From a virus (lineage: Duplodnaviria > Heunggongvirae > Uroviricota > Caudoviricetes), in IMG/VR virus record IMGVR_UViG_2872698443_000004, positions 1-51,075 of that record: a stretch of 51,075 nt of DNA; one strand, written 5' to 3'. The translations under genes were made by a program, and so were the position numbers. Positions 4,116 to 51,075 of this stretch are shown here, piece after piece. Within the stretch, counting starts at the first letter, position 1; each line of letters begins with the position of its first letter. The notes under the pieces were generated by a model. That model worked only from the letters and a program-made list of their open reading frames with translations. It was not told where the DNA came from and did not search any database.

Positions 4116-4123
4116 AATTCACC

Positions 4124-4522: not shown

Positions 4523-4638
4523 AATAAGACCTCAACTCTTTTCCATCCGTCACGTAATTTACGGGTGATTCGTTCAAGTAAAGATTCATTTAGTTGGAAG
4601 GCACCCATGCGAGCGCCTCCCGCGATTGCGTAAATCAT
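4507..4638 (-). CDS. cIII: CIII-like protease inhibitor (43 aa)
   Basis: MIYAIAGG...ESLLERITRKLRDGWKR matches lambda CIII core; AAGGA SD. Confidence 0.65.
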   Translation of the reverse strand: MIYAIAGGARMGAFQLNESLLERITRKLRDGWKRVEVLLCAMK

Positions 4639-4662
4639 GGGTGGTTCCTTATGTTGGTTTTA

Positions 4663-5631: not shown

Positions 5632-5643
5632 ATATCCTCCATC

Positions 5644-5669
5644 AAAAAAATGCCCTCACACTGGAGGGC
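5644..5669 (-). terminator. Rho-independent terminator (tL1-like)
   Basis: Hairpin GCCCTC-ACACTG-GAGGGC with 7-nt U-tract on minus strand. Confidence 0.5.
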
Positions 5670-5762
5670 AAAGAAGATTTCCAATAATCAGAACAAGTCG
5701 GCTCCTGTTTAGTTACGAGCGACATTGCTCACATAGCAGACTCGTAAATCTGCTATAGGCGC

Positions 5763-5921
5763 TTATTCGCATCGCATGACAACATCAAATTTTTCGAGAT
5801 TACTTTGTCGCAACAATCCTTCTTCTACTCGGTCAGCTTTTCTATAATTATCAAATTCGAAGTGTTTAATTACTTCTTTTGTTTCTCGCTCTATAACTTC
5901 AACGATGTATCTCTTATTCAT
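5763..5921 (-). CDS. Small hypothetical protein (52 aa)
   Basis: ATG overlaps TAA of upstream gene (TAATG); not in ORF track (<60 aa). Confidence 0.35.
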   Translation of the reverse strand: MNKRYIVEVIERETKEVIKHFEFDNYRKADRVEEGLLRQSNLEKFDVVMRCE

Positions 5922-6190
5922 TACTCATCACCTAGGGCTTTTTTGATAGCTTCGCGAGCCTTATTAACAGCTCCATACCATTCTGGATATGTTGTCGTTG
6001 TTCTATTTTCGGCTTGCTTAAGTAATAACTGAAGTGCTTCAAGTAAATCCGGTGCAGCCATAGCCAACCTTCCATTTGCTACGGCCTCTTCTGTTTCTTT
6101 ACCGGATAGGGCCATTCCAGGGTGTGAAAATAAAATTAAGCCTGCAAAATTGGCTTCTCGCCAATTTTTCCTAGTACCTTTAAATTCCAT
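5921..6190 (-). CDS. Hypothetical protein
   Basis: 89 aa, AGAGG SD. Confidence 0.45.
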   Translation of the reverse strand: MEFKGTRKNWREANFAGLILFSHPGMALSGKETEEAVANGRLAMAAPDLLEALQLLLKQAENRTTTTYPEWYGAVNKAREAIKKALGDE

Positions 6191-6227
6191 GTTAGCCTCT
6201 GTTGTTTATGCCAAAAATAAAGGCCGA

Positions 6228-6412
6228 CTATGCGGCCTCGGAAGGAAGTCCAATCATCTTATTCAAATCTTCTACCCGTAAAGCAGGAAGTGCTGTACTT
6301 GCTTTATCTGCTTCTTTTGGTAGCAATTCTTTGCTTTCAGGCCAAACTTCAATAAGTCGCTTAACTGTTGTGACTGAGTTCAAAGCAGCCCATACATTTG
6401 ATTCGATATCCT
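6228..6412 (-). pseudogene. C-terminal part of early-left gene split by IS1
   Basis: Reading frame of the 7181..7628 fragment continues across the IS1 target duplication into this segment, ending at TAG 6228-6230. Confidence 0.5.
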
Positions 6413-6427
6413 GGTAATGACTCCAAC

Positions 6428-6931
6428 TTATTGATAGTGTTTTATGTTCAGATAATGCCCGATGACTTTGTCATGCAGCTCCACCGATTTTGAGAACGAC
6501 AGCGACTTCCGTCCCAGCCGTGCCAGGTGCTGCCTCAGATTCAGGTTATGCCGCTCAATTCGCTGCGTATATCGCTTGCTGATTACGTGCAGCTTTCCCT
6601 TCAGGCGGGATTCATACAGCGGCCAGCCATCCGTCATCCATATCACCACGTCAAAGGGTGACAGCAGGCTCATAAGACGCCCCAGCGTCGCCATAGTGCG
6701 TTCACCGAATACGTGCGCAACAACCGTCTTCCGGAGCCTGTCATACGCGTAAAACAGCCAGCGCTGGCGCGATTTAGCCCCGACATAGCCCCACTGTTCG
6801 TCCATTTCCGCGCAGACGATGACGTCACTGCCCGGCTGTATGCGCGAGGTTACCGACTGCGGCCTGAGTTTTTTAAGTGACGTAAAATCGTGTTGAGGCC
6901 AACGCCCATAATGCGGGCAGTTGCCCGGCAT
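6428..6931 (-). CDS. insB: IS1 transposase InsB
   Basis: 167-aa ORF inside IS1. Confidence 0.9.
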
Positions 6932-7125
6932 CCAACGCCATTCATGGCCATATCAATGATTTTCTGGTGCGTACCGGGTTGAGAAGCGGTGTAAGTGAAC
7001 TGCAGTTGCCATGTTTTACGGCAGTGAGAGCAGAGATAGCGCTGATGTCCGGCGGTGCTTTTGCCGTTACGCACCACCCCGTCAGTAGCTGAACAGGAGG
7101 GACAGCTGATAGAAACAGAAGCCAC
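6850..7125 (-). CDS. insA: IS1 protein InsA
   Basis: 91-aa ORF with CPSC...CSHC zinc motif inside IS1. Confidence 0.9.
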
Positions 7126-7180
7126 TGGAGCACCTCAAAAACACCATCATACACTAAATCAGTAAGTTGGCAGCATTACC

Positions 7181-7628
7181 CGATATCCTTTTTCTTGGCT
7201 TCAAGTTTTTGTTGCAATGCGCAGATTTCATCAAACCTTTTTGTTATTTCGTGTTCTGCGCTAAACATGCATTTATCTTCGTTCGGAGCAGGGAGCAATA
7301 TATCTTCGCCGTTGCCGTCTTTCCCATATGAAAGCCATCCAACCCTTCTGCCAGATACAGTCAGATAAATTGAAGTAGAACGAACATCGTATGAGTAAAA
7401 TGAACATCCCATCTTTTCAAGTTCTTCACTTATAGCTACCAACTTGGATGATAACTGATCCACTTCCTCAGTTTTCTTTTTACCGCCAAACGCAATAACT
7501 CTGGCGTCAAGTGCAAGCTGGTTCTTTAACTTTGTTACTTCTTCAAGTTCAGTGAAAACCCCAGACTTAATTAAAGCGTTACGAGCGATTTCCTCTTTCA
7601 TTCTCGTAGTTAAGCGGATTGATGACAT
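7181..7628 (-). pseudogene. N-terminal part of early-left gene interrupted by IS1
   Basis: Likely start ATG 7626-7628 with GAGG SD; frame runs into IS1 where a stop at 7176-7178 truncates it. Confidence 0.5.
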
Positions 7629-7693
7629 ATTAATTCCTCTCAAATAAGTGCTTTGCTGCCAAAACAATGAACCATCCGGAAATTCCAGATAGT

Positions 7694-7921
7694 TCATAAT
7701 TCACTCTTCAATACTTCCAACTTACTAATCGCCGATAGATATCCGCGCTGATAGGGCATCATCATTCCTTCGAGCTTGCCACTTCTTAACTCCTCCCTGA
7801 GCAATTGTATTGCTTGATCAATAACCTCTGCCTTAGCGTCCTTTATGGCTTGCTTGCGGGGCTTTGCTTTCTGCTTTGGCAGATTTCTCAAGCATGATGG
7901 AATGTATGTCTGATTCATCAC
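7694..7921 (-). CDS. Hypothetical protein downstream of N
   Basis: 75-aa ORF, GTG immediately after N stop, ATG one codon later. Confidence 0.4.
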   Translation of the reverse strand: MMNQTYIPSCLRNLPKQKAKPRKQAIKDAKAEVIDQAIQLLREELRSGKLEGMMMPYQRGYLSAISKLEVLKSEL

Positions 7922-8194
7922 TTACCTCGCCGTCAGTTGTTTTGATTTCCGGTATCCTGCCGCGTAAATGGCTACGTTTGGCAGGCAAATACTTCCACTG
8001 CATTCTTCTGCCTTCTTGCAGCGAAGGCTTCCGAGCGATGCTGCTTTGTCTGCTCTGACGCAACCAGAGAGCTTTAGCGCAATTTTTCGCGCCAGTGCTT
8101 CATTACTGCGTCGCTCGGCAATAAGTTCTGCTCTGCGAGCTTTGTAGCGGCTTTTTGCCGTACCTTTGGATTCTTTCCAGACAATGGTTACCAT
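7922..8194 (-). CDS. N: N-like transcription antitermination protein
   Basis: Arginine-rich N-terminus (GTAKSRYKARRAELIAERR); first gene downstream of pL and nutL; AAGGAG SD. Confidence 0.7.
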   Translation of the reverse strand: MVTIVWKESKGTAKSRYKARRAELIAERRSNEALARKIALKLSGCVRADKAASLGSLRCKKAEECSGSICLPNVAIYAAGYRKSKQLTAR

Positions 8195-8304
8195 GATGGT
8201 CTCCTTTAAGTGGCTTTGGCGCATGACGCGTCGAGGTGCTTATCTTCTCGATCGCTGTCTTGCAGCTGCAATTCGCGCCATCCCCAAAACCACTCAAGTT
8301 CTGG

Positions 8305-8345
8305 TCTCAACGGTTAGGTTGAGAGTCCGTCGATGTTAAAGAGCA
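8305..8345 (-). promoter_or_regulatory. nutL (boxB hairpin 8305-8324, boxA 8334-8344)
   Basis: Minus-strand GCTCTTTAACA then hairpin UCUCAAC-CUAACC-GUUGAGA between pL and N; boxA identical to nutR. Confidence 0.6.
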
Positions 8346-8391
8346 TGCCAATCTGTTCCGTTTGGCTTCCAGCGTCCTGCTGATGGCTTAA

Positions 8392-8419
8392 ATTTAAGAC
8401 TTCTTAATTTATTGGTCAA
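8392..8419 (-). promoter_or_regulatory. pL promoter with OL operator
   Basis: Minus-strand -35 TTGACC (8414-8419), 16-nt spacer, -10 TTAAAT (8392-8397); palindrome TTAAGACTTCTTAA at 8394-8407. Confidence 0.5.
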
Positions 8420-8483
8420 GTGTATTTTTGAAGAAAACTTAATTTTATGGGCGTGAATTTAGTTTGTCTTTGATTTTTAACGG

Positions 8484-8508
8484 GAAATAAAAAAGGGGCG
8501 AAAGCCCC
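8484..8508 (-). terminator. Rho-independent terminator after cI
   Basis: GGGGC-GAAA-GCCCC hairpin right after cI stop, U-tract on minus strand. Confidence 0.6.
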
Positions 8509-9159
8509 TTAAGGAAGGTTTGCTAGCTTGGCATCAACGACAACGCCAATGATTTTACAGTTCCCATTGATTTCAATCATTGGGTATTGTGGATTGAGTG
8601 GTTTCAGGAATTTTCTCCCGGCATCAATAACTAACTTTTTGAATGTCGCCTCGTTTTCTCCTTCAAGTTTGGCGACTACCAGCTTTCCATTACGTGGTTC
8701 GACTTCTGGGTCGACGAGAATAATCATCCCCTCAGGAATACTCAGTCCTGCCGGGGCAGTCATTGAGTCGCCTTTAACGTCGAGCCAAAAAGAGTCTTCA
8801 GAACAATCTACCGTTGTGTCGTACCAGTTATCTATTGCACGCCTATGATATGGCTCTACAGCTTCCATCCAACATCCTGCGCTTACCCAACTAATTAGAG
8901 GATACGAACCTCTTGGATCATGCCTGCTGTGATAGGCAATGTTTGAAAGACTATCCTCTCCTTTCAACAGGTAATCAGGGGAGCACTGCAAAGCCTTGGC
9001 TAAGGCCAATAGGTTTTCGCCATTGGGCTCAGTTTCAGATCGCTCCCATTGGGAAATAGCAACATTAGACACGCCAACCATCTTGCCAAGGGCAGCCTGC
9101 CTAATCTTGAGTTCTTTTCTGCGAGCGCGAATACGCTCACCCATCAGTTGTGTATTCAT
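8509..9159 (-). CDS. cI: CI repressor (HTH + S24 LexA-like autopeptidase)
   Basis: N-terminal XRE-type HTH; Ala-Gly cleavage site (VSAGCW); GDSM and VVAKL catalytic motifs; divergent from cro. Confidence 0.85.
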   Translation of the reverse strand: MNTQLMGERIRARRKELKIRQAALGKMVGVSNVAISQWERSETEPNGENLLALAKALQCSPDYLLKGEDSLSNIAYHSRHDPRGSYPLISWVSAGCWMEAVEPYHRRAIDNWYDTTVDCSEDSFWLDVKGDSMTAPAGLSIPEGMIILVDPEVEPRNGKLVVAKLEGENEATFKKLVIDAGRKFLKPLNPQYPMIEINGNCKIIGVVVDAKLANLP

Positions 9160-15775: not shown

Positions 15776-15960
15776 ACGCCACAATTCAAACGATACCAGA
15801 GCTTCTTATCCAGACACGAGGCAATCAGACCGAAGTGGCGAGGATGCTTTCCTGCGCAAGAGGAACAGTGCTCAAGTACAACCGAGACAGCAAAGGCGAT
15901 CGTCACGTAATAGTTAACGGCGTCCTGATGGTCAAACAGGGAAAGAGGGGAAGACGATGA
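15772..15960 (+). CDS. ninH: NinH-like protein
   Basis: 62 aa; GNQTEVARMLSCARGTVLKY HTH resembling lambda NinH. Confidence 0.6.
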   Translation: MNATIQTIPELLIQTRGNQTEVARMLSCARGTVLKYNRDSKGDRHVIVNGVLMVKQGKRGRR

Positions 15961-16445
15961 GCATAAGAGAACTAAACCTCACCAAAGAGCAGCACGAGTG
16001 GCTGAATGGCTGGCTTGAACTGTGGGGAGCATGGGTTTATTCAGGCCGCCTGGAAAAGCGCATGAGCAGCGTAATAGCGAAGTTCATGGAGAGCGTAGAG
16101 CCGGGAAGAGTTATGACAAGGCCAATGTGTAATGATGATGATGGAATGTTGATTTCTCAGGTCGTCGATTCCGTCATGTACATTGACAAGAAAGCCTTTG
16201 GCATCCTCCTCAGCTACTACGCTCATGGATCTTCCAAGCATGCCATTGCATCTTACTATCATCGTGTCGCAAGACCTCGCAAGATGTTATGCCGGGGCGG
16301 CGGGCGTATTCAAAAACCATCGCTCGCAACCTGTCGCCGGGAAGTTGACGAAATCCTCAATGCTTCGTTGTTTATGATTTACCCGGTTCTGGATAGTGCG
16401 TTTAAAAATCGGAAACGTGTAGAGAAAATTAAACATGTAGCATAG
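15957..16445 (+). CDS. Q: Late-gene antiterminator Q-like protein
   Basis: 162 aa; last gene of nin region, directly upstream of promoter-like element, tRNAs and lysis cassette; not lambda Q. Confidence 0.55.
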   Translation: MSIRELNLTKEQHEWLNGWLELWGAWVYSGRLEKRMSSVIAKFMESVEPGRVMTRPMCNDDDGMLISQVVDSVMYIDKKAFGILLSYYAHGSSKHAIASYYHRVARPRKMLCRGGGRIQKPSLATCRREVDEILNASLFMIYPVLDSAFKNRKRVEKIKHVA

Positions 16446-16536: not shown

Positions 16537-16611
16537 GGGTCAGTCGTATAAAGGTCATTACGGAAGGCTGTTAACCTTCTTATCGTGGTTCGAGTCCACG
16601 CTGTCCCGCCA
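16537..16611 (+). tRNA. tRNA, anticodon GUU (Asn) by manual fold
   Basis: 75 nt cloverleaf: acceptor with one mismatch, perfect anticodon stem GAAGG/CCTTC, loop CTGTTAA, T-arm CGTGG-TTCGAGT-CCACG, 3' CCA; D-stem weak. Confidence 0.5.
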
Positions 16612-16616
16612 AATAT

Positions 16617-16692
16617 GCTGGTTTAGCTCCAATGGTAGAGCAGTCGCCTTGTAAGCGAATGGGTAGCGGTTCAAGTCCGTTAACCAGCACCA
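16617..16692 (+). tRNA. tRNA, anticodon UGU (Thr) by manual fold
   Basis: 76 nt: acceptor GCTGGTT/AACCAGC, D-stem GCTC/GAGC, loop CTTGTAA, T-loop TTCAAGT, 3' ACCA. Confidence 0.65.
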
Positions 16693-37454: not shown

Positions 37455-38653
37455 TGGCTCTGAACCTTGATTCTCTCGGTTTATCTGCAAAGGTAACCGT
37501 GGAGGGGATCAGTGCGCCTGATTATCAGACGATACTCAGCACCCTGATTAGCTATTTTCAGCAGATTTATGGCAGTGATGCCTACCTCGAACCGGACAGC
37601 AAAGACGGCCAGATGGTGGCTCTGATGGCGCTGGCGATTCATGATGCCAATAATACTGCGATAACTGTCTACAACTGTTTTTCACCGGCAACCGGCTATG
37701 GGGCTGCACTGACCAGTAACGTGAAAATAAATGGTATTTCACGTAAAGGCGCGACGAACTCTACGGTTGATTTGCTTCTTACAGGAACTGCCGGAACAAC
37801 CATCATTAATGGCAGCGTGAAAGACAGTAATAATGTGATATGGCGTTTGCCTGCTTCAGTGGTGGTCGGCGTGGATGGTACAGTGATGGTGACCGCAACA
37901 TGTTCCGTCAGTGGTGCAGTGGCGGCGCTGGCTGGAACTATCACTGAAATTAATACGCCAACCCGTGGCTGGGTTTCGGTAACTAATCCTGCTGCGGCTA
38001 CTGTTGGCTCTCCGGCAGAAACTGACGCGGAGTTACGTATCCGCCAGTCACAAAGTGTTGCGTTGCCATCAATAACCCCATTTGAAGCACTGGATGGTGC
38101 TGTTTCTAATGTTACCGGTGTAACCCGCCACAAACTCTATGAAAACGATACTGGTTCGGAGGACGGTAACGGGTTACCGCCACACTCTGTTGCTGTAATT
38201 GTGGATGGCGGTGATGTGACGGATATTGCTCAGGCTATCAGAGGGAATAAAGGCCAGGGGACAGCCACTCACGGTACAACATCCGTTACGGTTCCGGATA
38301 AATACGGCAATCCCCATGTAATCAAATTCTCGCGTTCCAGTGATGTGCCTGTTTATGCCCTGATTAAATTAAAAGTTTTTACGGGTTATACCTCACAGAT
38401 AGGGCAGCAGATCCAGCAGGCTATTTCCGACTATATCAATAGTCTGACGATTGGTGATTCGGTCCTTTTAAGTCGCATTTACTCACCGGCGAATCTTGGC
38501 GTGGTGAGTGGCGGGAATGCACGCTATTACGATATTCAGGAACTGACGATTGGGAAATCCCCGGGGGCTTTGTCGTCATCAAACATTGATATCAGATACA
38601 ACGAATCTGCGTCCTGTACACCGGAAAATATCGTTATAACGGTGGAGTCATGA
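37454..38653 (+). CDS. Baseplate J-like protein
   Basis: 399 aa, synteny. Confidence 0.55.
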   Translation: MALNLDSLGLSAKVTVEGISAPDYQTILSTLISYFQQIYGSDAYLEPDSKDGQMVALMALAIHDANNTAITVYNCFSPATGYGAALTSNVKINGISRKGATNSTVDLLLTGTAGTTIINGSVKDSNNVIWRLPASVVVGVDGTVMVTATCSVSGAVAALAGTITEINTPTRGWVSVTNPAAATVGSPAETDAELRIRQSQSVALPSITPFEALDGAVSNVTGVTRHKLYENDTGSEDGNGLPPHSVAVIVDGGDVTDIAQAIRGNKGQGTATHGTTSVTVPDKYGNPHVIKFSRSSDVPVYALIKLKVFTGYTSQIGQQIQQAISDYINSLTIGDSVLLSRIYSPANLGVVSGGNARYYDIQELTIGKSPGALSSSNIDIRYNESASCTPENIVITVES

Positions 38654-39330
38654 GCAAATACACCGAACTGATCACGAACTACCACGCCACCAAACCTAAA
38701 TTTCTTGCACATGTTGATCTGATGACCCGGCCGCTTATTGATGTTGCGGCTGCCACCAGAGGGCTGATTACTGCATTTGATATTGACTCTGCGGTTGGTG
38801 TGCAACTTGACATTCTTGGATTGTGGATCGGACGTAGCCGTGTTGTCAGCCAGCCTATCTCAGGTGTCTATTTCAGCTGGGATACCGACGGGCTTGGATA
38901 TGATCAGGGTGTATGGCAGGGGCCATACGATCCTGATTCCGGATACATGTACCTCAGCGATGAAACTTATCGTGTCATCCTTAAAGCGAAGATTGCGATT
39001 AATAACTGGGACGGACGGAATGATTCGCTTCCAGCAATTCTTGACGCGGCGACAGCAGGATCCGGGCTGCGAATGCAGATCGTCGACAACCAGGACATGA
39101 CGATATCGGTCTGGGTCTTTCCCGATAATGATATTTCAGATGTATCGCGTGAGTTAATTGCTGCAATTAAACAGGGATATCTCACAGTAAAAGCCGCCGG
39201 TGTGTGGGCGGGCGGCATTGAAACACCTTCGGTGGAAGCCCCATCGGAAGGCTCAAAATTTTTTGGTTTTGATATGGATAACGAATACATCGATGGGTTC
39301 GATGTTGGAGCATGGGGGACAATACTCTAA
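38650..39330 (+). CDS. Tail protein (gp48 / P2 gpI-like)
   Basis: 226 aa, synteny. Confidence 0.5.
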   Translation: MSKYTELITNYHATKPKFLAHVDLMTRPLIDVAAATRGLITAFDIDSAVGVQLDILGLWIGRSRVVSQPISGVYFSWDTDGLGYDQGVWQGPYDPDSGYMYLSDETYRVILKAKIAINNWDGRNDSLPAILDAATAGSGLRMQIVDNQDMTISVWVFPDNDISDVSRELIAAIKQGYLTVKAAGVWAGGIETPSVEAPSEGSKFFGFDMDNEYIDGFDVGAWGTIL

Positions 39331-40364
39331 TGGCAACAAACAACTTTAAACCGTTCGCGACAGCGGCAAATGCTAACGTGACGGCCCAGGCTGACTGGGA
39401 AGCGCTTCCGGCTCTACTCTCTGGTTTCATGGCAGGAAAAGCATCCAGTGCGCAGGTAAACAAAGCCATTCGACAGGCCAGCTTTATTGCGGCAGCGCTT
39501 GCGCAGTACACAGCCAACAAAAGTGGGCTGGACGTGCTTGATGATGGTGACCTGAACGGCTTTATCTCCAAAATGGGAACCGCTTTTGGGAAGGATTTCC
39601 AGGCACTTGATGCCACGCTGACGGCATTGGCAGGGCTGGCAACCGGTGAAAATAAACTCCCGTATTTCACTGGAAATGATACAGCAGCGCAGACTGATTT
39701 AACTTCTGTCGGCCGCGACATTATTGGTAAAAGCACTATTGCTGACATTCTCACATACCTTGGTTTACCGGAATTACTGAACCTGAAGAGAGATAAGACA
39801 GATAACAGATTCTCGACTTTCGTGTTTGAGTCTGGCAGGCCAGAGGATAGTCTTTGGCTGGCATATGATGAACAGAAGAAACAATTTGCTATCGCTTTTA
39901 AAGTCGACGGTGCCGCAAAATACGTATATCTGCAAAACAAAGGAGGAAGTCTTGCTCTTGAAGAACAGGTAACGGCGCAGGCAATACTGACAAAACTGCT
40001 TCAGGTTGATGGTTCCGGGTCAGGGCTTGATGCCGATTTGGTGCGCGGGCTACCTGCTGATTTTGGTAGTTCACCGTCAACTAATGGATATCAGAAGTTA
40101 CCGTCCGGCATGATTATACAGTGGGGGATGTCAGAGGTTACACCAACGGATGTCTACGTAAAATTCCCGGTGGCTTTCACAAGACCACCACTGTTTGTCG
40201 GCGAGTCTTCGCCGGGCGGCGGACAAACGACATCAGTGTGGACAGCTAATGCTATAACGAATGTCGGATTTAATGCCACACAGATTTGCGTGTTAAGCAA
40301 CACATCAGACAGAGTGCTCCTTCCCGATAATAACGCCACCACCTGGCTAGCGATAGGATTTTAA
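39312..40364 (+). CDS. Tail fiber protein
   Basis: 350 aa, directly upstream of tail fiber assembly gene. Confidence 0.6.
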   Translation: MGDNTLMATNNFKPFATAANANVTAQADWEALPALLSGFMAGKASSAQVNKAIRQASFIAAALAQYTANKSGLDVLDDGDLNGFISKMGTAFGKDFQALDATLTALAGLATGENKLPYFTGNDTAAQTDLTSVGRDIIGKSTIADILTYLGLPELLNLKRDKTDNRFSTFVFESGRPEDSLWLAYDEQKKQFAIAFKVDGAAKYVYLQNKGGSLALEEQVTAQAILTKLLQVDGSGSGLDADLVRGLPADFGSSPSTNGYQKLPSGMIIQWGMSEVTPTDVYVKFPVAFTRPPLFVGESSPGGGQTTSVWTANAITNVGFNATQICVLSNTSDRVLLPDNNATTWLAIGF

Positions 40365-40366
40365 TT

Positions 40367-40801
40367 ATGGATATGTGCTTCTCAGCCACAACGTTGGCGT
40401 TTTATCCTCTGGATATGAAAGACGGCTATATCGCCGCCGGAACATGGCCGGATGATATCGTTAAACTGACGGATTCAGAGCGTGATAAATACTGGATGAA
40501 ACCGGCTCCGGAAGGAAAAGAACTCGGCAGTGTCAAAGGTCGACCTGCCTGGGTGAATGTCACTCTGCCTACCCATGAGGAATTGGTGCATCAGGCGGAA
40601 GTCAAAAAAGTATTTCTGATATCAGAAGTGAAATCGGAAACAGAGATGCTACGGACAAGACTGGCGCTCAAACGCATCAAGCCAGATGAAGAAGCACTTT
40701 TGAACGCCTGGTTTGATTATCTGGACGCACTGGAACTGGTCGATACTTCCAGTGCGCCAGATATTGAATGGCCTACGCCTCCGGCAGTTCAGGCCAGATG
40801 A
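40367..40801 (+). CDS. Tail fiber assembly protein (Tfa)
   Basis: 144 aa; N-terminal FYPLDMKDGYIAAG and C-terminal LDALELVDTS...WPTPP motifs. Confidence 0.6.
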   Translation: MDMCFSATTLAFYPLDMKDGYIAAGTWPDDIVKLTDSERDKYWMKPAPEGKELGSVKGRPAWVNVTLPTHEELVHQAEVKKVFLISEVKSETEMLRTRLALKRIKPDEEALLNAWFDYLDALELVDTSSAPDIEWPTPPAVQAR

Positions 40802-41510
40802 CATCCGGCGCACATGACAAAACTGAGACACACAAATATTTGCACTGGATTGCAAGGCTTTGTGCTATTCGATAGTTAAGGTGGATCACTCCACCTTTTC
40901 ATCAAGCCAATCCGCCCACCACTGCATCATTTCTCTGCGCTTATCGTGGCAGATGCCTCACTATCACACGGTGATGGTTCATTACTGGTTTGCATAATGG
41001 ATAGAGAACTGCGGATAAAAGATATCCCAAAACCCCAAAATCTCATCTTTAGGATTTGCAGAAAGGGAGGCGTGAACAAATACCTGCGCATGAAAGCGGA
41101 ACTAGTCCAGATGTGATGCTTGTGGTGATCACATACATCATTAACGATGCTCGTTATGGTGAGTTTGATGACTACCCTCTGAAGTGAAAATTGTGTTGTG
41201 TACCAAATTGCGTACCAAACTAAAATCACAAATCATGAAACCCTTGTTCATGGCGGTTCTCAGGGGTGTTGCGCGTAATCGTGAAACAAAAAGGTAGATT
41301 GTTGCTTACCGTCATTCATCATTAGGTTAAATCCGTTATTTCTGCTGTCTGCCAGAGTATCAAATATCACCGTACTAATCAGCTTTAGCGCCACAAGATC
41401 ATGTCAGATAAAAATGAGAGGGTAGTCACATTTTCTTGCACTTTATTCCAGCCAGTTCATAAGTATTTCCGTAAAAAGAACAGCTATTTGAAACTCCTGA
41501 GGGTTTGCTG

Positions 41511-42677
41511 TTGAAACGCCGTCTTATTATTGCTGCTTCTTTGTTCGTTTTTAACTTATCGTCTGGTTTTGCGGCGGAAAACATTCCTTTTTCACCTCAG
41601 CCTCCAGAGATTCGTGCCGGGTCCTGGGTATTGATGGATTACACCACCGGTCAGATCCTCACCGCGGGTAATGAGCATCAACAGCGCAATCCCGCCAGCC
41701 TGACAAAGCTGATGACGGGTTATGTCGTGGATCGCGCTATCGATAGTCATCGCATTACGCCAGACGATATTGTCACCGTGGGGCGCGATGCGTGGGCGAA
41801 AGATAATCCGGTGTTTGTCGGTTCTTCACTGATGTTTTTGAAAGAGGGCGATCGCGTATCGGTACGTGATTTAAGCCGTGGTTTAATTGTGGATTCCGGA
41901 AATGACGCTTGTGTTGCTCTGGCTGACTATATTGCCGGTGGGCAACGGCAGTTTGTTGAAATGATGAACAACTATGCCGAGAAGCTGCATCTCAAGGATA
42001 CGCATTTTGAAACAGTGCATGGTCTGGATGCACCTGGCCAGCATAGCTCGGCTTATGATTTAGCTGTGCTTTCTCGCGCTATCATCCACGGCGAGCCCGA
42101 GTTTTATCATATGTACAGTGAGAAAAGTCTCACCTGGAACGGTATCACCCAGCAAAACCGTAACGGGTTGTTGTGGGATAAAACCATGAATGTTGACGGC
42201 CTGAAAACGGGTCATACTTCTGGTGCCGGGTTTAATCTCATTGCTTCGGCTGTAGATGGGCAGCGTCGTCTCATTGCAGTGGTAATGGGGGCTGACAGTG
42301 CAAAAGGTCGTGAGGAAGAGGCAAGAAAATTACTGCGTTGGGGGCAACAAAACTTTACTACGGTGCAAATTTTGCACCGTGGGAAAAAGGTCGGAACGGA
42401 ACGCATCTGGTATGGCGATAAAGAAAATATCGACCTGGGAACGGAACAAGAGTTCTGGATGGTGCTACCGAAAGCCGAAATTCCACATATCAAAGCCAAA
42501 TATACCCTTGATGGTAAAGAGCTCACCGCGCCAATTAGCGCCCATCAGCGGGTAGGGGAAATTGAACTTTACGACCGTGATAAACAGGTGGCGCACTGGC
42601 CGCTGGTTACCCTGGAATCTGTCGGGGAAGGCGGCATGTTTTCCCGCCTGAGTGATTATTTCCACCATAAGGCCTGA
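41511..42677 (+). CDS. dacD: D-alanyl-D-alanine carboxypeptidase DacD (PBP6b)
   Basis: SLTK active-site motif, signal peptide; likely TTG start 41511 with AGGG SD (track start 41505 also TTG). Confidence 0.85.
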   Translation: MKRRLIIAASLFVFNLSSGFAAENIPFSPQPPEIRAGSWVLMDYTTGQILTAGNEHQQRNPASLTKLMTGYVVDRAIDSHRITPDDIVTVGRDAWAKDNPVFVGSSLMFLKEGDRVSVRDLSRGLIVDSGNDACVALADYIAGGQRQFVEMMNNYAEKLHLKDTHFETVHGLDAPGQHSSAYDLAVLSRAIIHGEPEFYHMYSEKSLTWNGITQQNRNGLLWDKTMNVDGLKTGHTSGAGFNLIASAVDGQRRLIAVVMGADSAKGREEEARKLLRWGQQNFTTVQILHRGKKVGTERIWYGDKENIDLGTEQEFWMVLPKAEIPHIKAKYTLDGKELTAPISAHQRVGEIELYDRDKQVAHWPLVTLESVGEGGMFSRLSDYFHHKA

Positions 42678-42795
42678 CCTTTCTTTTGCAGCAGACTGGC
42701 AGGAGTGCGAGTCTGCTCGCATAATCAACACTCATTCCTTGTGGTTTTAATATTGCAACTATACTGTATATAAAAACAGTGTTAATGGAGGCGTC

Positions 42796-43269
42796 ATGAA
42801 CTACGAGATTAAGCAGGAAGAGAAACGTACCGTTGCAGGTTTCCATCTCGTTGGCCCGTGGGAACAGACGGTAAAGAAAGGCTTTGAGCAGTTGATGATG
42901 TGGGTAGATAGTAAAAATATTGTGCCGAAGGAGTGGGTTGCTGTCTATTACGACAATCCAGATGAAACACCCGCCGAAAAATTACGCTGCGGCACCGTCG
43001 TGACGGTGCCGGGTTACTTTACGCTTCCCGAAAACAGTGAGGGCGTCATTCTGACAGAAATTTCAGGTGGTCAGTATGCGGTGGCGGTAGCTCGTGTAGT
43101 CGGTGATGATTTTGCTAAACCCTGGTATCAGTTCTTTAATAGCCTCTTGCAGGACAGTGCTTATGAAATGTTACCAAAGCCCTGCTTCGAGGTTTACTTG
43201 AACAATGGCGCGGAAGATGGGTACTGGGATATCGAAATGTATGTTGCGGTGCAGCCAAAACATCACTAA
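42796..43269 (+). CDS. sbmC: DNA gyrase inhibitor SbmC (GyrI)
   Basis: 157 aa, GGAGG SD; matches recalled SbmC. Confidence 0.85.
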
Positions 43270-43466
43270 TTCATCTCAGGGCGGTGTGTTAACGCGATGA
43301 CCACTCTTTTTTTGAAAGCGAAAAGAGTAAGATGCGCCTTTCAAATTTTTCGCTCCTGCCGGGAAATTACACTGTTCCCGGTATGTCCGTCGGATAATTC
43401 AGAGGCGCGCCTTCTGGCCGACAGATGAGTTATGAGCGCTTTTAATCTTCATTACGGAGTTTCTGC

Positions 43467-44525
43467 GTGCGTGCCGATAAGTCATTAAGCCCGTTTGAAA
43501 TCCGGGTATACCGCCATTACCGCATTGTGCATGGTACTCGGGTCGCGCTGGCATTCCTGCTCACTTTTCTCATTATCCGCCTGTTTACTATCCCGGAAAG
43601 CACCTGGCCGCTGGTCACCATGGTGGTGATTATGGGGCCAATCTCGTTCTGGGGTAACGTTGTCCCTCGCGCCTTCGAACGTATTGGCGGTACGGTGTTG
43701 GGTTCGATTTTGGGTCTTATCGCTCTGCAACTGGAGTTAATTTCGTTACCGCTGATGTTAGTCTGGTGCGCGGCGGCGATGTTTCTTTGCGGTTGGCTGG
43801 CGCTGGGCAAGAAACCGTATCAAGGATTATTGATTGGGGTGACGCTGGCAATTGTTGTTGGTTCCCCGACAGGTGAAATTGATACGGCGTTATGGCGAAG
43901 CGGCGATGTGATCCTCGGCTCTTTACTGGCAATGTTGTTTACCGGTATCTGGCCACAACGGGCGTTCATCCACTGGCGCATTCAACTGGCGAAAAGTCTG
44001 ACCGAGTATAATCGGGTCTATCAATCTGCATTCTCACCGAACTTACTCGAACGCCCACGTCTGGAAAGCCATCTACAAAAACTCTTGACCGATGCCGTGA
44101 AAATGCGTGGGCTGATTGCGCCCGCCAGCAAAGAAACTCGTATTCCAAAATCGATATATGAAGGTATCCAGACCATTAATCGCAATCTGGTTTGTATGCT
44201 GGAGTTGCAAATCAATGCATACTGGGCCACGCGCCCCAGCCATTTCGTGTTATTGAACGCGCAAAAACTTCGTGATACCCAGCATATGATGCAGCAAATA
44301 CTGCTGAGCCTTGTTCATGCGCTGTACGAAGGTAATCCGCAGCCGGTTTTTGCCAATACGGAAAAATTGAACGATGCTGTGGAAGAGCTGCGTCAGTTGC
44401 TGAATAACCACCATGACCTGAAGGTTGTGGAAACACCAATCTATGGTTATGTGTGGCTGAACATGGAAACGGCACATCAGCTTGAGTTGCTATCGAATCT
44501 GATTTGCCGGGCCTTGCGCAAATAA
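43467..44525 (+). CDS. yeeA: Inner membrane protein YeeA
   Basis: 352 aa multi-TM; GTG start with GGAG SD; synteny sbmC-yeeA-yeeX. Confidence 0.8.
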   Translation: MRADKSLSPFEIRVYRHYRIVHGTRVALAFLLTFLIIRLFTIPESTWPLVTMVVIMGPISFWGNVVPRAFERIGGTVLGSILGLIALQLELISLPLMLVWCAAAMFLCGWLALGKKPYQGLLIGVTLAIVVGSPTGEIDTALWRSGDVILGSLLAMLFTGIWPQRAFIHWRIQLAKSLTEYNRVYQSAFSPNLLERPRLESHLQKLLTDAVKMRGLIAPASKETRIPKSIYEGIQTINRNLVCMLELQINAYWATRPSHFVLLNAQKLRDTQHMMQQILLSLVHALYEGNPQPVFANTEKLNDAVEELRQLLNNHHDLKVVETPIYGYVWLNMETAHQLELLSNLICRALRK

Positions 44526-44696
44526 TTCCTGAACTTCAGAATCATCTTGCTGCTGCTTCGATTCAGCAAGGATAAAGGGTATGATAGTGAAAAGGGATAA
44601 AAGCATTGTCATCTGCGGCAGCTATGAGTAATGTTGGCCCTAACGAATAGCGGTTGCTTAAACGAATCCGACTCTCACATTATCAGGGGTATAAAA

Positions 44697-45026
44697 ATGG
44701 AAACTACCAAGCCTTCATTCCAGGACGTACTGGAATTTGTTCGTCTGTTCCGTCGTAAGAACAAACTGCAACGTGAAATTCAGGACGTTGAGAAAAAGAT
44801 TCGTGACAACCAGAAGCGCGTCCTGTTGCTGGACAACCTGAGCGATTACATCAAGCCGGGGATGAGCGTTGAAGCAATCCAGGGCATCATCGCCAGCATG
44901 AAAGGTGACTATGAAGATCGCGTTGACGATTACATCATCAAAAATGCCGAGCTCTCCAAAGAACGCCGCGATATCTCCAAAAAGCTGAAAGCTATGGGCG
45001 AAATGAAAAACGGCGAAGCGAAGTAA
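44697..45026 (+). CDS. yeeX: YeeX (UPF0265 family)
   Basis: 109 aa from ATG 44697; downstream hairpin GAGGGTTGCC-CG-GCAACCCTC. Confidence 0.8.
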
Positions 45027-45126
45027 TTCCCGTTTTATTCAATGAGGGTTGCCCGGCAACCCTCATTGCTCATTGATTCTTATCTGTGTATCACCGTCAT
45101 CATTCTCATCTGAGAACCTGTCGAAA

Positions 45127-45309
45127 TTAACAACAGCCTTCTTCTGTATGCAGCAAGGCAAAAAGTTCTGTAACTCCATTGTTATTAACTGCACTGGTTA
45201 CTAACACGTTGTGCGCTCCAGCTTCCCGTAACCAACTTTTCACCAAAGATATTTGTTCCATGCTGGCTAAATCTGCTTTGGTTACTACTCCAATGACCGG
45301 GTGATTCAT
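45127..45309 (-). pseudogene. yoeF: EutP/PduV-like GTPase C-terminal fragment (yoeF-like)
   Basis: Only C-terminal ~60 aa (VIGVVTKADLA...) look protein-like; N-terminal part of track ORF is antisense to a transposase remnant. Confidence 0.4.
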
Positions 45310-45368
45310 GGCCCGGTAGGGCGTTTTTACCTCTAATTCCTGCTTCAGCGCTGAGATTCCTGCTTGTT

Positions 45369-45509
45369 GCCGGAAAAGCAGGCACCTGCCGTCTGAACGG
45401 TATCGATCCGGAAGCGTATCTGCGCCATATTCTGAGCATACTGCCGGAATGGCCCTCCAACCGTGTTGACGAACTCCTGCCATGGAACGTAGTTCTCACC
45501 AATAAATAA
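45369..45509 (+). pseudogene. Transposase C-terminal remnant
   Basis: Open frame ending ...GIDPEAYLRHILSILPEWPSNRVDELLPWNVVLTNK; no start or N-terminal part; followed by hairpin. Confidence 0.4.
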
Positions 45510-45923
45510 GCGTCAATACGGTGCTCCGTTGACGCTTACTTTAATCCGTTTTCTGAGCTTAGATTTTTCTGTTCCTACCCAGACCGTGGATTTGGAATTC
45601 ATTTTTTGTCAGGTCAATGCTAATCGTTAAAACGGCCATAACGCACCTCCACTGGAAGGTTTATCAGTAATATCCTACCGTTGCTTCATGGTCGGGGCGT
45701 CCATTCCATTATTATCGGTTTTCCTTTCTGTTTATAAATGAAAACGCCAGCTGTATTCAGGCTGGCGTCAGGGGAAATGAAGCCTGTTGAGTGAGATTCA
45801 CCGGTTCTGGTGCAGAAGCTGCAGATGGCGCAGGGTAAGGACATCTTCTCTTGCCTGCTTAATACAGGACAACAGTGCTGTTTCTGTGGTTAATGGCACT
45901 ATACCCTGCATCACTGCATTGTC

Positions 45924-46118
45924 TTACAGCAACTGGTGAGGGCTGGCATAAGTTGCCGGTGTTTCGGTAGAGTCACGGTCATCCACCACGCGGAGTGAAT
46001 AACCTTTTTCAGCGGCCTTATTAATCAGTTCAGTGATATTAACACCATCAATGTCAACGACAATGTGCCCCATATCCAGCGCCTGTACGTTAACGCTGTC
46101 GGCTTCCAGTGTCATCAT
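45924..46118 (-). CDS. yeeW: YeeW-like protein
   Basis: 64 aa; start overlaps cbtA stop (ATGA). Confidence 0.75.
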   Translation of the reverse strand: MMTLEADSVNVQALDMGHIVVDIDGVNITELINKAAEKGYSLRVVDDRDSTETPATYASPHQLL

Positions 46119-46488
46119 TTCGCCTCCGGATACTTACCCAGGGTAATGTTATTTACCGTTCTGTAATTGTCGCGGGTCATCAGGCCGGTCGCCCTGCGAG
46201 CCCGGAGGATATCGATGCTGTTTATTAACTGAGAGCGGGTACAGGCGCTGAATCCCGGCTGGTCGGTAGCACCAGCGCGTATTTTTCCACGAGAAAGTTC
46301 ACCGCATCACACAGTGAAATGCCTGCCTCAATATGCTGCTCAATCACACGTTCATCGGCAAAAGGTGTGTCATTCAGTGTGAGGCCATAGTGCTGGTCCA
46401 GCAGTCGGGACAGCAGTATCTGCCAGATTTCAACAGGAGACGGGCGAGAACTGGTCGCCTGCCCGGGTAATACAGGTAATGTTTTCAT
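46115..46488 (-). pseudogene. cbtA: CbtA (YeeV) toxin gene, frameshifted
   Basis: N-terminal 73 aa read normally then 14 out-of-frame codons to a stop at 46225; recognisable C-terminus continues in another frame down to 46115. Confidence 0.7.
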
Positions 46489-46576
46489 ACTGAAGATTTT
46501 CCTGATATGCAGATATAAAAATGGAAAAGTGGCGTGGTGAAAACACCAGGCCGTAGCAGAAGGCTATTCTGGAGAG

Positions 46577-46945
46577 TTAATTTTTCATTTCGGGCGTCGG
46601 ATAAACAGCCAGATAAACGTAACCACAACTGCTGAGGGTATCGGCTTTGCAGGTCAGCCCTTTTGCATACAGCGTGACGGTATGCTGATGGCGGGGATTC
46701 AGTTCACCGCTGGTGAGCATGAGTTCCAGTTGTTTCATCAGCAGCGGAAAGGCCTGGTCCAGGTGGTACGCATCTGCATCGCTGAACAGGCCTCTGATAC
46801 CGGCGCGGTCGGCAAGGTAATGCAACCGGTTACCCTCCTGCACCAGACGTGCCCCGAAACAGGGCGTCACGGTGCAGGGCAGCCCCCACCAGGGGCGGTC
46901 GTGATTGTCGTCGGGAAGTGTTGTCCCGGGGAGTGTGTCTGACAC
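46577..46945 (-). CDS. cbeA: CbeA (YeeU) antitoxin
   Basis: 122 aa, intact. Confidence 0.85.
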   Translation of the reverse strand: MSDTLPGTTLPDDNHDRPWWGLPCTVTPCFGARLVQEGNRLHYLADRAGIRGLFSDADAYHLDQAFPLLMKQLELMLTSGELNPRHQHTVTLYAKGLTCKADTLSSCGYVYLAVYPTPEMKN

Positions 46946-47018
46946 GATAAAATCCTTACAGAAAATCGGCTAAGAATGGTCCGGTAGTGGCGATAATTCT
47001 GCTCATCAGAATTCCCAC

Positions 47019-47240
47019 TCAGTTCAGGGTGACGCTCATCAGCCGGACATACGGACCAAAACTGTCCTTACGGCGTTCAGCAAACACGGCCAGCACACCG
47101 GGAATATCCTGCACTTCACGACCGGTATACGCTTCAGCACTGCCGTGCCAGCGGTATTTACCGGTACAGAACGGAAAAAGACGGGATGTCGGATGTTGTT
47201 GGTGAATACGCATGGCTTCACCACGGGTGATAATTTTCAT
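47019..47240 (-). CDS. yeeT: YeeT-like protein
   Basis: 73 aa, synteny. Confidence 0.75.
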   Translation of the reverse strand: MKIITRGEAMRIHQQHPTSRLFPFCTGKYRWHGSAEAYTGREVQDIPGVLAVFAERRKDSFGPYVRLMSVTLN

Positions 47241-47302
47241 AATGGGATACCTCTGAAGACAGAAGATAAAAGTGAAAACAGGTGTGATGTGGTTGTGAAG
47301 GG

Positions 47303-47794
47303 TTAAAGCAGACCATGTTCGGCAAAGGAGAAAACCTGGTTGCCACCGACTATCAGATGGTCCGGCACCCGGATATCCACCAGGCCCAGTGCCTGTACCA
47401 GACGTTCCGTGATAAGGCGGTCTGCCTTACTGGGTGTGACTTCACCGGAGGGGTGATTGTGTGCCAGCACCACGGCAGCGGCATTGTGGTACAGGGCGCG
47501 TTTAATCACTTCCCGGGGATGGACTTCCGTGCGGTTGATGGTGCCGGTAAAGAGGGTTTCACCGGCAATCAGTTGATTCTGGTTATTCAGATACAGCACC
47601 CGGAATTCTTCACGCTCCAGTCCCGCCATGTTCAGAATCAGCCATTCCCGTGCTGCACGGGTGGAGGTGAAGGCCACGCCGGGTTCATGAAGATGGCGGT
47701 CCAGGGTTTTCAGGGCCCGTTGAATGAGGCTGCGCTCGCCGGGCGTCATCTCTCCGGGCAGAAAGGAAAGTTGTTGCATTGTGCTTCTCTCCAT
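47303..47794 (-). CDS. yeeS: RadC-like JAB-domain protein (YeeS)
   Basis: HNHPSG JAMM motif; start may be the internal Met (MQQLSF). Confidence 0.8.
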   Translation of the reverse strand: MERSTMQQLSFLPGEMTPGERSLIQRALKTLDRHLHEPGVAFTSTRAAREWLILNMAGLEREEFRVLYLNNQNQLIAGETLFTGTINRTEVHPREVIKRALYHNAAAVVLAHNHPSGEVTPSKADRLITERLVQALGLVDIRVPDHLIVGGNQVFSFAEHGLL

Positions 47795-48274
47795 TCAGTC
47801 GATGATGCGCATAATGGCGCTGCATTCCGGATGCTGCAGGGCGTAATCCCGCAACCGGTAATAATGGACCGTCATGGCATAATTCTCCGTACGACAGGCA
47901 TGATGACTGTACGTCATCAGACAGGCGGCAATACCGGCGGCTTCCGGGCTCATTTCTGCGCGGTTACCGTTCATGGCATTGAACAGTACCCATGTTTCGT
48001 CATCATCGTCATCCGGTTCGGGTGCCATAAATGCCCCGCCGTTGTTCAGGGTGTACAGATTCCAGATACCACCGCAGTAGTCTTCGCACAGACGGTCCAT
48101 CCAGCCGAAGACACGGGGCTCCAGGGTCACCCACTGTGGAATGAGGCCAAAATGCTGCGGCCAGAAGCTGATGCGCTGTTCATCAGGGACGAGGCTGGCA
48201 ACCAACTGAGGCGGATTATTCTCTGGTGTTGTAGCTGAATAAATTGTGGGGGTATTCTGAGAAACGGTTTTCAT
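47795..48274 (-). CDS. Antirestriction protein (KlcA/ArdB-like)
   Basis: 159 aa with acidic patch EPDDDDDE; usual position upstream of radC-like gene. Confidence 0.65.
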   Translation of the reverse strand: MKTVSQNTPTIYSATTPENNPPQLVASLVPDEQRISFWPQHFGLIPQWVTLEPRVFGWMDRLCEDYCGGIWNLYTLNNGGAFMAPEPDDDDDETWVLFNAMNGNRAEMSPEAAGIAACLMTYSHHACRTENYAMTVHYYRLRDYALQHPECSAIMRIID

Positions 48275-48355
48275 GAGATAACTCCTTAAATAACAAATAA
48301 ATGTGTGTTTTTCAGGAACGAAAGCTGAATGATTCCCTCACTCAGGGAAACGGCA

Positions 48356-49177
48356 TCAGCGCAGGCTCTCCAGCATCGTTTCTGCCATCACCCACAATGC
48401 GCGATTGAGCTTAATGTCGGTATCAATGCTGTGAATGGCCCGGGTATGGATACGTTTTCCTTTTGCACTGCGACCGGAAATCCCGCCTTTCAGCATATTC
48501 TCCTGGATGGTCTGATATGCGCTCCACAGGTCCTTACCGTAATCCTCCCGGCGTCGCGGCGTCAGAATGTCGGCGGTGGTGACGGGCTGATGTTCGTCAC
48601 CATAACGGTAAGTCAGTGCCGCCTGTGCCAGCGCCTGGCGTGCCGGTGGCGGCAGGACCAGCGACTGCATGGCATCACGCTTCTCCTCTATCCGGTCAAA
48701 CACGCCCACCACCTCGTAAGCCCCTTCGATAACTTTCTCCACTACATTTCCCCGGTGTGGAACACGCACTTCCCCCAGAGACTGGCCACAGACGCACCCG
48801 TTCTGGCAGACGAACCTGAAGTAACCCGGCAGCATCTGGTAGCTGGAGGTACCGTCATGAGAGTTGAGCAGAATAATTTCAGGGACATGTTCTCCGTTTA
48901 TCTCTCCGGCCCGCCGCAGACGCAGCATGTGTTTTGTGTATCCCCGGCGGCCCGGGTCGCGCACACGGGTCTGGCAGGCGAAGAACGGCTGAAAGCCTTC
49001 CCGCTGCAGATTTTCCAGGACGGTAATGGTGGGAATGTACGCATACCGTTCACTGCGGGAGGTGTGCCGGTCTTCCCCAAAAATACTGGGTACATGGCGT
49101 ATCAGTTCTTCATGTGTCAGCGGACGGTCACGGCGTATCTGGTTTGCAGCATAACCAAAACGACTTGCTAATCGCAT
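48356..49177 (-). CDS. DUF932-like protein
   Basis: 273 aa; synteny with antirestriction/radC cluster. Confidence 0.6.
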   Translation of the reverse strand: MRLASRFGYAANQIRRDRPLTHEELIRHVPSIFGEDRHTSRSERYAYIPTITVLENLQREGFQPFFACQTRVRDPGRRGYTKHMLRLRRAGEINGEHVPEIILLNSHDGTSSYQMLPGYFRFVCQNGCVCGQSLGEVRVPHRGNVVEKVIEGAYEVVGVFDRIEEKRDAMQSLVLPPPARQALAQAALTYRYGDEHQPVTTADILTPRRREDYGKDLWSAYQTIQENMLKGGISGRSAKGKRIHTRAIHSIDTDIKLNRALWVMAETMLESLR

Positions 49178-49221
49178 ACTTTGCTCCTTATCGGTGGTTA
49201 AGATTTACTGGTGCAATAAAT

Positions 49222-49254
49222 GAAAAAAGCCGCGTCTCCCGGAGAAGACGCGGC
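49222..49254 (-). terminator. Rho-independent terminator (minus strand)
   Basis: GCCGCGTCT-CCCGGAGA-AGACGCGGC hairpin with U-tract on minus strand; downstream of secreted-protein operon. Confidence 0.45.
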
Positions 49255-49397
49255 CTGACGGGTGAAATGAATAAGGTTTATTGTCTGAGAGGCCTTTCAC
49301 TGGCGAGCCACGCATTAAGCGGCTTTCCGGTAACAATGGCTGGGGCTGTATTTACCTTTGATATTAATAATGTGCAGAGAAACGCATGGTTTACTCC

Positions 49398-49808
49398 TTA
49401 GATTTTAAGTTTGTCCTGGGCTACAACGACAGGTTTTCCGGATGTGTCGATGACTCCTACCGTCGGTACGCCATTTTTGATTTCGAAGAACGGTTTGTTG
49501 CTACCTGAGCACAGTTGATTGTCCCCGTATTCAATCATTTGTGCTTTCCCGGTTTTCAGGTTAACTACCGAGACAGTGTAGTCGTAGCACCAGGCACCAC
49601 CACGTTCAAGCACGAAAACATAGCTGTTATCTTTATAGTTGAACTGATTCTTTGTCTGGCAATTCATACCGTCAATTTCGGTACAGGAAAACGCTTCTGT
49701 AGTATTAACGTATTTGATGTTATTTGGCAGTTTTACTTGTTTCGCAGTAGCGAAGACAGAGAACAGAATAGTTACAGCAACGAGTAAAGTTTTGATAAAA
49801 GTTTTCAT
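49398..49808 (-). CDS. Hypothetical secreted protein (136 aa)
   Basis: Signal peptide MKTFIKTLLVAVTILFSVFATA; four Cys; AT-rich. Confidence 0.55.
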   Translation of the reverse strand: MKTFIKTLLVAVTILFSVFATAKQVKLPNNIKYVNTTEAFSCTEIDGMNCQTKNQFNYKDNSYVFVLERGGAWCYDYTVSVVNLKTGKAQMIEYGDNQLCSGSNKPFFEIKNGVPTVGVIDTSGKPVVVAQDKLKI

Positions 49809-49823
49809 GATAGACTCCTTAAA

Positions 49824-50312
49824 TTAGTTAACCGCAGCTACGTAGTTTTTCACCAGATACGCGAATTCATGCACGCCAATTTCACCGAACCAAACCAGGT
49901 AGGCCGGGTCATCTAAACCAAAGTAACGGTAGCCAACAACTTCATGGGTTTTTGGGTTATAGAGTGTTACGATAAAGTCCCAGCCGCAGGTATTGGCTTT
50001 GCAACCGTCGCCCTGGAACCAGACTGTACCGTTAATGTTTACTGGCGTGATACCTCCACCAGGGCCATCCATATAGCCGCCTTTACCGAACATGCCGCTC
50101 AGTCCGACCGGTTTTAATGCTTTGTCGATAGCGGCTTTGTAGGTAGCGTCACCTTCGTACAACTCGTACGTTGATGGACACGCTCCAGGTTGTTCAGCCC
50201 AGGCTTCCGGGTTACAACTAAGAGCTTGTTTTACGGTAGCCGCTTCTGCGTTAAAGTTAAAGCCCGTGAACAGAACCGCCAGAAATAACATAAGGGTATG
50301 TAAACGTTTCAT
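49824..50312 (-). CDS. Hypothetical secreted protein (162 aa)
   Basis: Signal peptide MKRLHTLMLFLAVLFTGFNFNAEA; Gly-rich, several Cys; AT-rich. Confidence 0.55.
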   Translation of the reverse strand: MKRLHTLMLFLAVLFTGFNFNAEAATVKQALSCNPEAWAEQPGACPSTYELYEGDATYKAAIDKALKPVGLSGMFGKGGYMDGPGGGITPVNINGTVWFQGDGCKANTCGWDFIVTLYNPKTHEVVGYRYFGLDDPAYLVWFGEIGVHEFAYLVKNYVAAVN

Positions 50313-50614
50313 TGTAAATATTCTTCCGTTGTAAATGGCGCTGGAAAATTTCTCATCAGTGAAACCTTCCGGAAGTTTCCCCCCTTGTATGATGTATATC
50401 GCCAGTATTTTATTTCATCCCGGCTGTGATTTTTATATTCCCCGGCACGTGCAATAACGCTGACCAGAGATATAAGGCTCATTAATAACTTTACAGGTAA
50501 TTTCATAATTAAATTTCCAGTGAGTGAATTGACAGGTGAGGGGTAAAACTTTCTCTCAGGTAATATATATCTGAAAATATTTTCAATAACACCAGACAGG
50601 AAAAACACCACCAC
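50309..50614 (-). CDS. Hypothetical small protein
   Basis: 101-aa ORF overlapping start of downstream gene; internal Met MKLPVKLLMSLISLVSVIA may be true start; weak SD. Confidence 0.3.
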   Translation of the reverse strand: MVVFFLSGVIENIFRYILPERKFYPSPVNSLTGNLIMKLPVKLLMSLISLVSVIARAGEYKNHSRDEIKYWRYTSYKGGNFRKVSLMRNFPAPFTTEEYLQ

Positions 50615-50682
50615 AGGCGGTGGCGTTTCTTTGGGGCGTCTTTATTTAATCCGGGCCATCGCGTTTCTCAGTGCCAAATCTG

Positions 50683-51075
50683 GGTAATGACTCCAACTTA
50701 TTGATAGTGTTTTATGTTCAGATAATGCCCGATGACTTTGTCATGCAGCTCCACCGATTTTGAGAACGACAGCGACTTCCGTCCCAGCCGTGCCAGGTGC
50801 TGCCTCAGATTCAGGTTATGCCGCTCAATTCGCTGCGTATATCGCTTGCTGATTACGTGCAGCTTTCCCTTCAGGCGGGATTCATACAGCGGCCAGCCAT
50901 CCGTCATCCATATCACCACGTCAAAGGGTGACAGCAGGCTCATAAGACGCCCCAGCGTCGCCATAGTGCGTTCACCGAATACGTGCGCAACAACCGTCTT
51001 CCGGAGCCTGTCATACGCGTAAAACAGCCAGCGCTGGCGCGATTTAGCCCCGACATAGCCCCACTGTTCGTCCAT
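50683..51075 (-). mobile_element. IS1, second copy (partial, runs off window end)
   Basis: Same terminal repeat and sequence identical to first copy over 393 bp; same orientation. Confidence 0.9.
50698..51075 (-). CDS. insB: IS1 transposase InsB (truncated by window end)
   Basis: Identical to InsB C-terminal 125 aa of first copy. Confidence 0.85.

Follow-up and report, generated by a model that had tools for sequence, protein, structure and literature searches.

Right-hand attachment site of a mosaic lambdoid prophage in the 5' end of sbcB, upstream of dacD

Results

The interval between the last intact prophage gene and dacD (40802-41510) is almost certainly the attR (P-O-B') of a lambdoid prophage that combines a SEN34-like myovirus tail with a type 2851 tyrosine-integrase/attP module and is inserted in the 5' end of sbcB. 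The features found in and around it, within the whole 51,075-nucleotide stretch that was analysed (the window), are collected in Table 1. The initial annotation had described this interval as an AT-rich, non-coding prophage-chromosome junction that should contain the right attachment site and the dacD promoter. The limits that it gave are correct, with 709 bp devoid of intact genes between the end of the tail fibre ORF and the start of dacD, and the right attachment site is indeed there, as indicated by the core, its position in sbcB and the P-arm homology. The AT-richness is real but mild, since the GC content is 42.3% compared to 49.7% for the window, which corresponds to the 3rd percentile of 709-bp windows. 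The term non-coding holds as far as intact genes are concerned but overlooks two gene relics and, on the minus strand at 41274-41322, 49 nt that genuinely encode part of SbcB. Of the 709 bp, 237 are chromosomal and the other 472 come from the phage, comprising the P arm with its two pseudogene relics.

Table 1. Features of the prophage-chromosome junction (window coordinates).
Feature	Position	Strand	Basis and remarks
Tail fibre assembly gene	40367..40801	+	Pfam Caudo_TAP, E 3e-26; ORF list; last intact prophage gene
P arm plus core of type 2851 attP	40816..41286	+	Megablast against phages; alignment with mEp234 attP and with 1717 and CUPF09 attR
Integrase relic, DKRREMMQWWADWLDEKVE*	40877..40945	-	Last ~22 codons (69 bp); Sf6/HK620-type integrase 3' end
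Hairpin, AAGGTGGA-TCAC-TCCACCTT	40878..40897		8-bp stem; overlap with stop codon of integrase relic
humD/umuD-like S24 peptidase relic	40937..41187	+	C-terminal two thirds (250 bp); interrupted by a frameshift and an in-frame stop
Tandem repeats, GTGTACCAAA and GCGTACCAAA	41198..41219	+	12 bp start to start; candidate integrase arm-type sites
Orphaned native sbcB start, MMNDGKQQSTFLFHDY	41260..41322	-	Codons 1-16 at 41322-41274; translation and alignment; sbcB start of unoccupied L007 corresponds to 41322
Core (crossover region), CGTAATCGTGAAA	41274-41286	+	13 bp, identical in attR, attL, attB and attP
Native sbcB-dacD divergent intergenic region	41323..41510		188 bp; 100% identical to unoccupied 19SZHZ886Rt
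CRP-like site, TGAGA GGGTAG TCACA	41415-41430		TGAGA-N6-TCACA; read by eye
dacD	41511..42677	+	TTG start, as in RefSeq

The chromosomal side of the junction was defined by alignment with unoccupied strains. The query 40700-41600 was matched by all of the complete E. coli genomes (5426/5426), and in every unoccupied genome among the matches listed the match started at query base 575, that is, at window position 41274, where chromosomal homology begins. In the unoccupied genome THO-010 this breakpoint base lies 49 nt into sbcB, which is divergent from dacD, and the window is 100% identical to the unoccupied strain 19SZHZ886Rt from 41274 to 46000, the position up to which identity right of the junction was checked. 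The junction is real, far beyond chance, and can be placed to a single base. The earlier placement upstream of dacD needs to be refined, as the insertion falls within codons 13-17 of sbcB, near its 5' end, and not in a plain intergenic spacer. Prophage sequence continuing beyond dacD, which had been named as evidence against a junction here, was not what followed; the order of dacD, sbmC, yeeA and tmaR is that of unoccupied genomes. At least 80% of the junction is carried by 419 of the 5426 complete genomes (~8%). When these complete E. coli genomes were searched for an identical lysogen the best attR match was 95-97.5%, and no identical reference lysogen at the sbcB site was found among them. 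Further to the right, beyond tmaR, the window contains a CP4-44-like cryptic element (about 45100-51075, coordinates mapped from L007) with an EutP/PduV fragment, yeeW, a frameshifted cbtA, cbeA, yeeT, yeeS, an antirestriction gene and a DUF932 gene. Since this element is also present in unoccupied strains, it is independent of the prophage.

The core itself had been considered impossible to identify because the left attachment site is outside the window. Comparison with a related lysogen provides it, since the strain CUPF09 carries a related prophage at the same site and is the source of both prophage ends for the comparison. A four-way alignment of the window attR, CUPF09 attR, CUPF09 attL and the unoccupied attB left 13 bases in common, CGTAATCGTGAAA, and their single occurrence in the window confirms that attL lies outside of it. 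The record of phage mEp234 ('type 2851') annotates the same sequence as its attachment site, and that of the Stx2c phage 1717 as an insertion duplication. The users of the type 2851 core include the Stx2c phages 2851 and 1717, mEp234, HK544, HK140 and the Shigella phage Sf101. On the sbcB strand the core reads TTTCACGATTACG and encodes F13-H-D-Y-E17, a motif that contains what we take to be the catalytic residues Asp15 and Glu17 of exonuclease I. Recombination between attP and sbcB occurred within these 13 bp. This same sequence has been published for Sf101/2851 (PMC4159516), and sbcB is a textbook integration site for Stx phages (PMC8065619).

On the phage side, a megablast search with the P-arm block against phages returned 64 records, with 89-95% identity in the 21 records covering at least 80% of the block. 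Full-length identity was 93-95% to 2851, 1717 and mEp234 and 89% to Sf101, while HK544 and HK140 share only its last ~170 bp. The alignment with the mEp234 attP gave 92.8% identity over query bases 15-496 (window 40816-41297), and in this free phage the block runs contiguously into the P' arm and int. The site therefore resembles those of 2851, 1717, mEp234, HK544, HK140 and Sf101 in its 13-bp core and its place in sbcB, and resembles the 2851-type phages in a P arm of 89-95% identity that comprises the pair of GTACCAAA repeats as well as the two relics. In contrast to these phages, the body of the prophage contains a SEN34-like contractile-tail structural module, and it is the tail fibre assembly gene that abuts the block (40801/40816). 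No stx gene was noticed in this prophage.

The two relics, a fossil humD and the fossil 3' end of another integrase with a hairpin, would be passengers of the P arm, travelling with the module. The integrase relic is identical to the HK633 integrase at 20 of 23 positions (tblastn, E 3e-12) and also matches the 3' end of the HK633 int at the DNA level; PGAP annotates an N-terminally truncated fragment on the minus strand at the matching place in KBN10P04869. The humD relic aligns in two frames to residues 46-129 of HK140_028, a Peptidase_S24 protein (tblastn, E 8e-18), and a DNA alignment showed that the HK140 copy of this humD-type gene is intact. A frameshifted or truncated HumD/S24 pseudogene is annotated by PGAP at the same place in GPEC1292 and S163-2. 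Furthermore, the stop codon of the relic is common to mEp234, 1717 and CUPF09, which indicates that the pseudogene is older than the divergence of these three. As RNA, the hairpin has a folding energy of -14 kcal/mol on the plus strand (z -4.8) and -15.6 kcal/mol on the minus strand (z -4.25), and it is likely, as predicted from its sequence, to be the terminator of the tail operon. A consensus terminator scan of 40700-41600 called none, this hairpin included, because its T run is short.

The maintenance of this block at 89-95% identity in siphoviruses, podoviruses and this myovirus-type prophage could also be read as a sign that the 470 bp on the phage side encode a real small protein or RNA, whose function would explain their conservation across unrelated phages, and a 100-aa ORF does exist on the minus strand at 40927-41229. 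We consider this very unlikely. This ORF was rejected as a gene, as it had no Pfam or PHROG match and runs antisense through the recognisable humD pseudogene, and the RNA version of the proposal is at odds with an Rfam scan of 38000-44000 that yielded no match to any family at E up to 1. In addition, HK544 and HK140 share the int and the core but contain just the final ~170 bp of the block, so the rest of it is dispensable, and the block owes its conservation to having spread recently along with the int module. The small plus-strand ORFs were also discarded as genes, having no Pfam match and, as the sole PHROG match, a UmuD-like one to the ORF at 40946-41116 (E 0.0011) that belongs to the humD relic.

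The attR arm also contains two tandem repeats that are likely to be arm-type integrase sites, a putative assignment made from their sequence and arrangement. The pattern GYGTACCARA occurs twice in the 51-kb window compared to 0.27 matches expected, both times at 41198-41219, and the tandem repeats were also picked up as direct repeat D3. The distance between the core and the two GTACCAAA repeats is 55-76 bp. The tandem repeats are invariant across all the attP and attR sites compared, and three more copies are found in the int-adjacent P' arm of mEp234, CUPF09 and S163-2. As a sequence pattern, repeats present in both arms and distinct from the core correspond to the arrangement of lambda. Another candidate, a 12-bp perfect inverted repeat (41169-41180/41417-41428) that straddles the junction, was set aside as probably due to chance, one of its phage-arm bases being variable in mEp234, 1717 and CUPF09.

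The prophage to the left of the junction (1-40801) is a mosaic of a lambdoid early region, a contractile-tail module like that of SEN34 and vB_EcoM-606R2, and the type 2851 att module. Its early region includes a Rad52-type recombinase and cI/cII-like genes, and nin genes are present in relatives. S163-2 has an early region 99.8% identical to window 3405-9000 but a P22-like tail end; that the body is unlike the named 2851-type phages is ordinary mosaicism. The Mu/SEN34-type baseplate and tail genes (baseplate J, DUF2612, gp53-like fibre) could recall a transposable phage of the Mu type or the remnant of a decayed phage, in which case the end would not be a site-specific att and the 700 bp would be mere spacer, but this is scarcely credible given the exact 13-bp core with 470 bp of type 2851 attP arm at the end, a breakpoint base identical to that of all other sbcB lysogens and the lambdoid character of the early region (with cI, cII, Q and nin genes in relatives). 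Elsewhere in the prophage, the lysis genes are separated from a Q-like antiterminator ORF (15957-16445) by a stretch with genes for tRNA-Asn (GTT) and tRNA-Thr (TGT) at 16537-16692. In Stx phages this is where tRNAs and stx are found; no stx-sized ORF was evident here.

Insertion at this site separates sbcB from its own 5' end. The native sbcB start left at attR runs into phage DNA as AQHP followed by a stop. The attP of the type 2851 phages mimics the start of sbcB, reading on the sbcB strand ATG ACA GAC ACA GAT AAA CAA CCT ACC TTC CTC and then the core, so the product encoded at attL begins with MTDTDKQPTFLFHDY and continues from native codon 17. Outside the window, the phage P' arm would thus supply the look-alike start MTDTDKQPTFLFHDY and sbcB would remain an intact ORF of 474 aa. 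In the related lysogens CUPF09 and S163-2, int adjoins a full, annotated 474-aa sbcB, and apart from its first residues the rebuilt SbcB shares 99% identity with the native protein of 475 aa. The integrase and attL of S163-2 are located ~3 kb beyond the point that matches window base 1. We infer that this prophage has a matching attL and integrase, and the expected left end would comprise a 2851-type integrase, three GTACCAAA repeats, ATGACAGACACAGATAAACAACCTACCTTCCTC, TTTCACGATTACG and sbcB from codon 17 onward. Only 181 bp separate the rebuilt sbcB from the divergently oriented int in related lysogens (L009 6114-8898; L003 17441-20225), so the promoters of both must lie in the P' arm, together with the three putative arm-type repeats.

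On the other side of the junction, dacD keeps the whole native 188-bp spacer plus the sbcB stub, and its control region is therefore intact. Both the dacD promoter and the sbcB promoter, which is now orphaned, are presumably located in this spacer. The expectation of a dacD promoter in the interval is borne out as far as the native DNA upstream of dacD is present in full, but the promoter itself was not located by a consensus scan: in 40700-41600 this returned two promoter-like hits, no more than in shuffled sequences and neither of them sensibly placed for dacD or sbcB. The dacD<>sbcB region is a predicted CRP target in a genomic SELEX study (PMC3105977). In lysogens, the CRP-like site of Table 1 remains with dacD and the sbcB stub, apart from the rebuilt sbcB. 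Additionally, the window is without a 20-bp spacer segment, ATTTGGCAGCGAGTGGCAAC, at 41389/41390 that is present in THO-010 and in most E. coli, judged by the 90-95% identity band (5190 records). The short allele is common to the window, 19SZHZ886Rt and others.

Discussion

Our analysis confirms a finding that is correct, ordinary and already known, since the right-hand attachment site has been described previously. Its value is mainly for annotation, as the right boundary of the prophage is now fixed to the base (41286/41274) and the 700 bp that had been taken as non-coding spacer turn out to combine one real gene stub and two pseudogenes with recombination sites. The prophage sits at the well-known sbcB site of Stx2c and serotype-converting phages, and no new biology is implied by this junction.

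The organization of the site can be compared with two well-known systems. The attP of lambda has arm-type sites P1-P2 and P'1-P'3, and the type 2851 module is similar in having a tyrosine integrase with repeated putative arm-type sites, two in the attR arm and three near int, which gives the same 2 + 3 count. However, the two systems show no sequence relationship, in type 2851 transcription of int leads away from the att site, and the target lies inside a protein-coding gene here whereas it is a spacer in lambda. Phage 21 and e14 integrate in icd, with the phage carrying a substitute gene end. In both icd and sbcB integration takes place inside a conserved coding sequence and a diverged substitute gene end keeps the ORF, but it is the 3' end that is replaced in icd and the 5' end in sbcB. 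Replacement of the 5' end means that the start codon, the ribosome-binding region and the promoter must come from the phage arm.

This arrangement raises the possibility, which we put forward tentatively and regard as rather less than probable, that integration rewires the expression of exonuclease I. The rebuilt sbcB would lose its native promoter region, the predicted CRP target and its first 16 codons, and would depend on P' arm signals that also serve the divergent int. At the opposite prophage end, transcription from the orphaned sbcB promoter would pass through a 20-codon stub and enter the prophage in antisense to the tail genes. If this were true, exonuclease I levels would be under phage control in about 8% of E. 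coli strains, with potential effects on recombination and phage defence.
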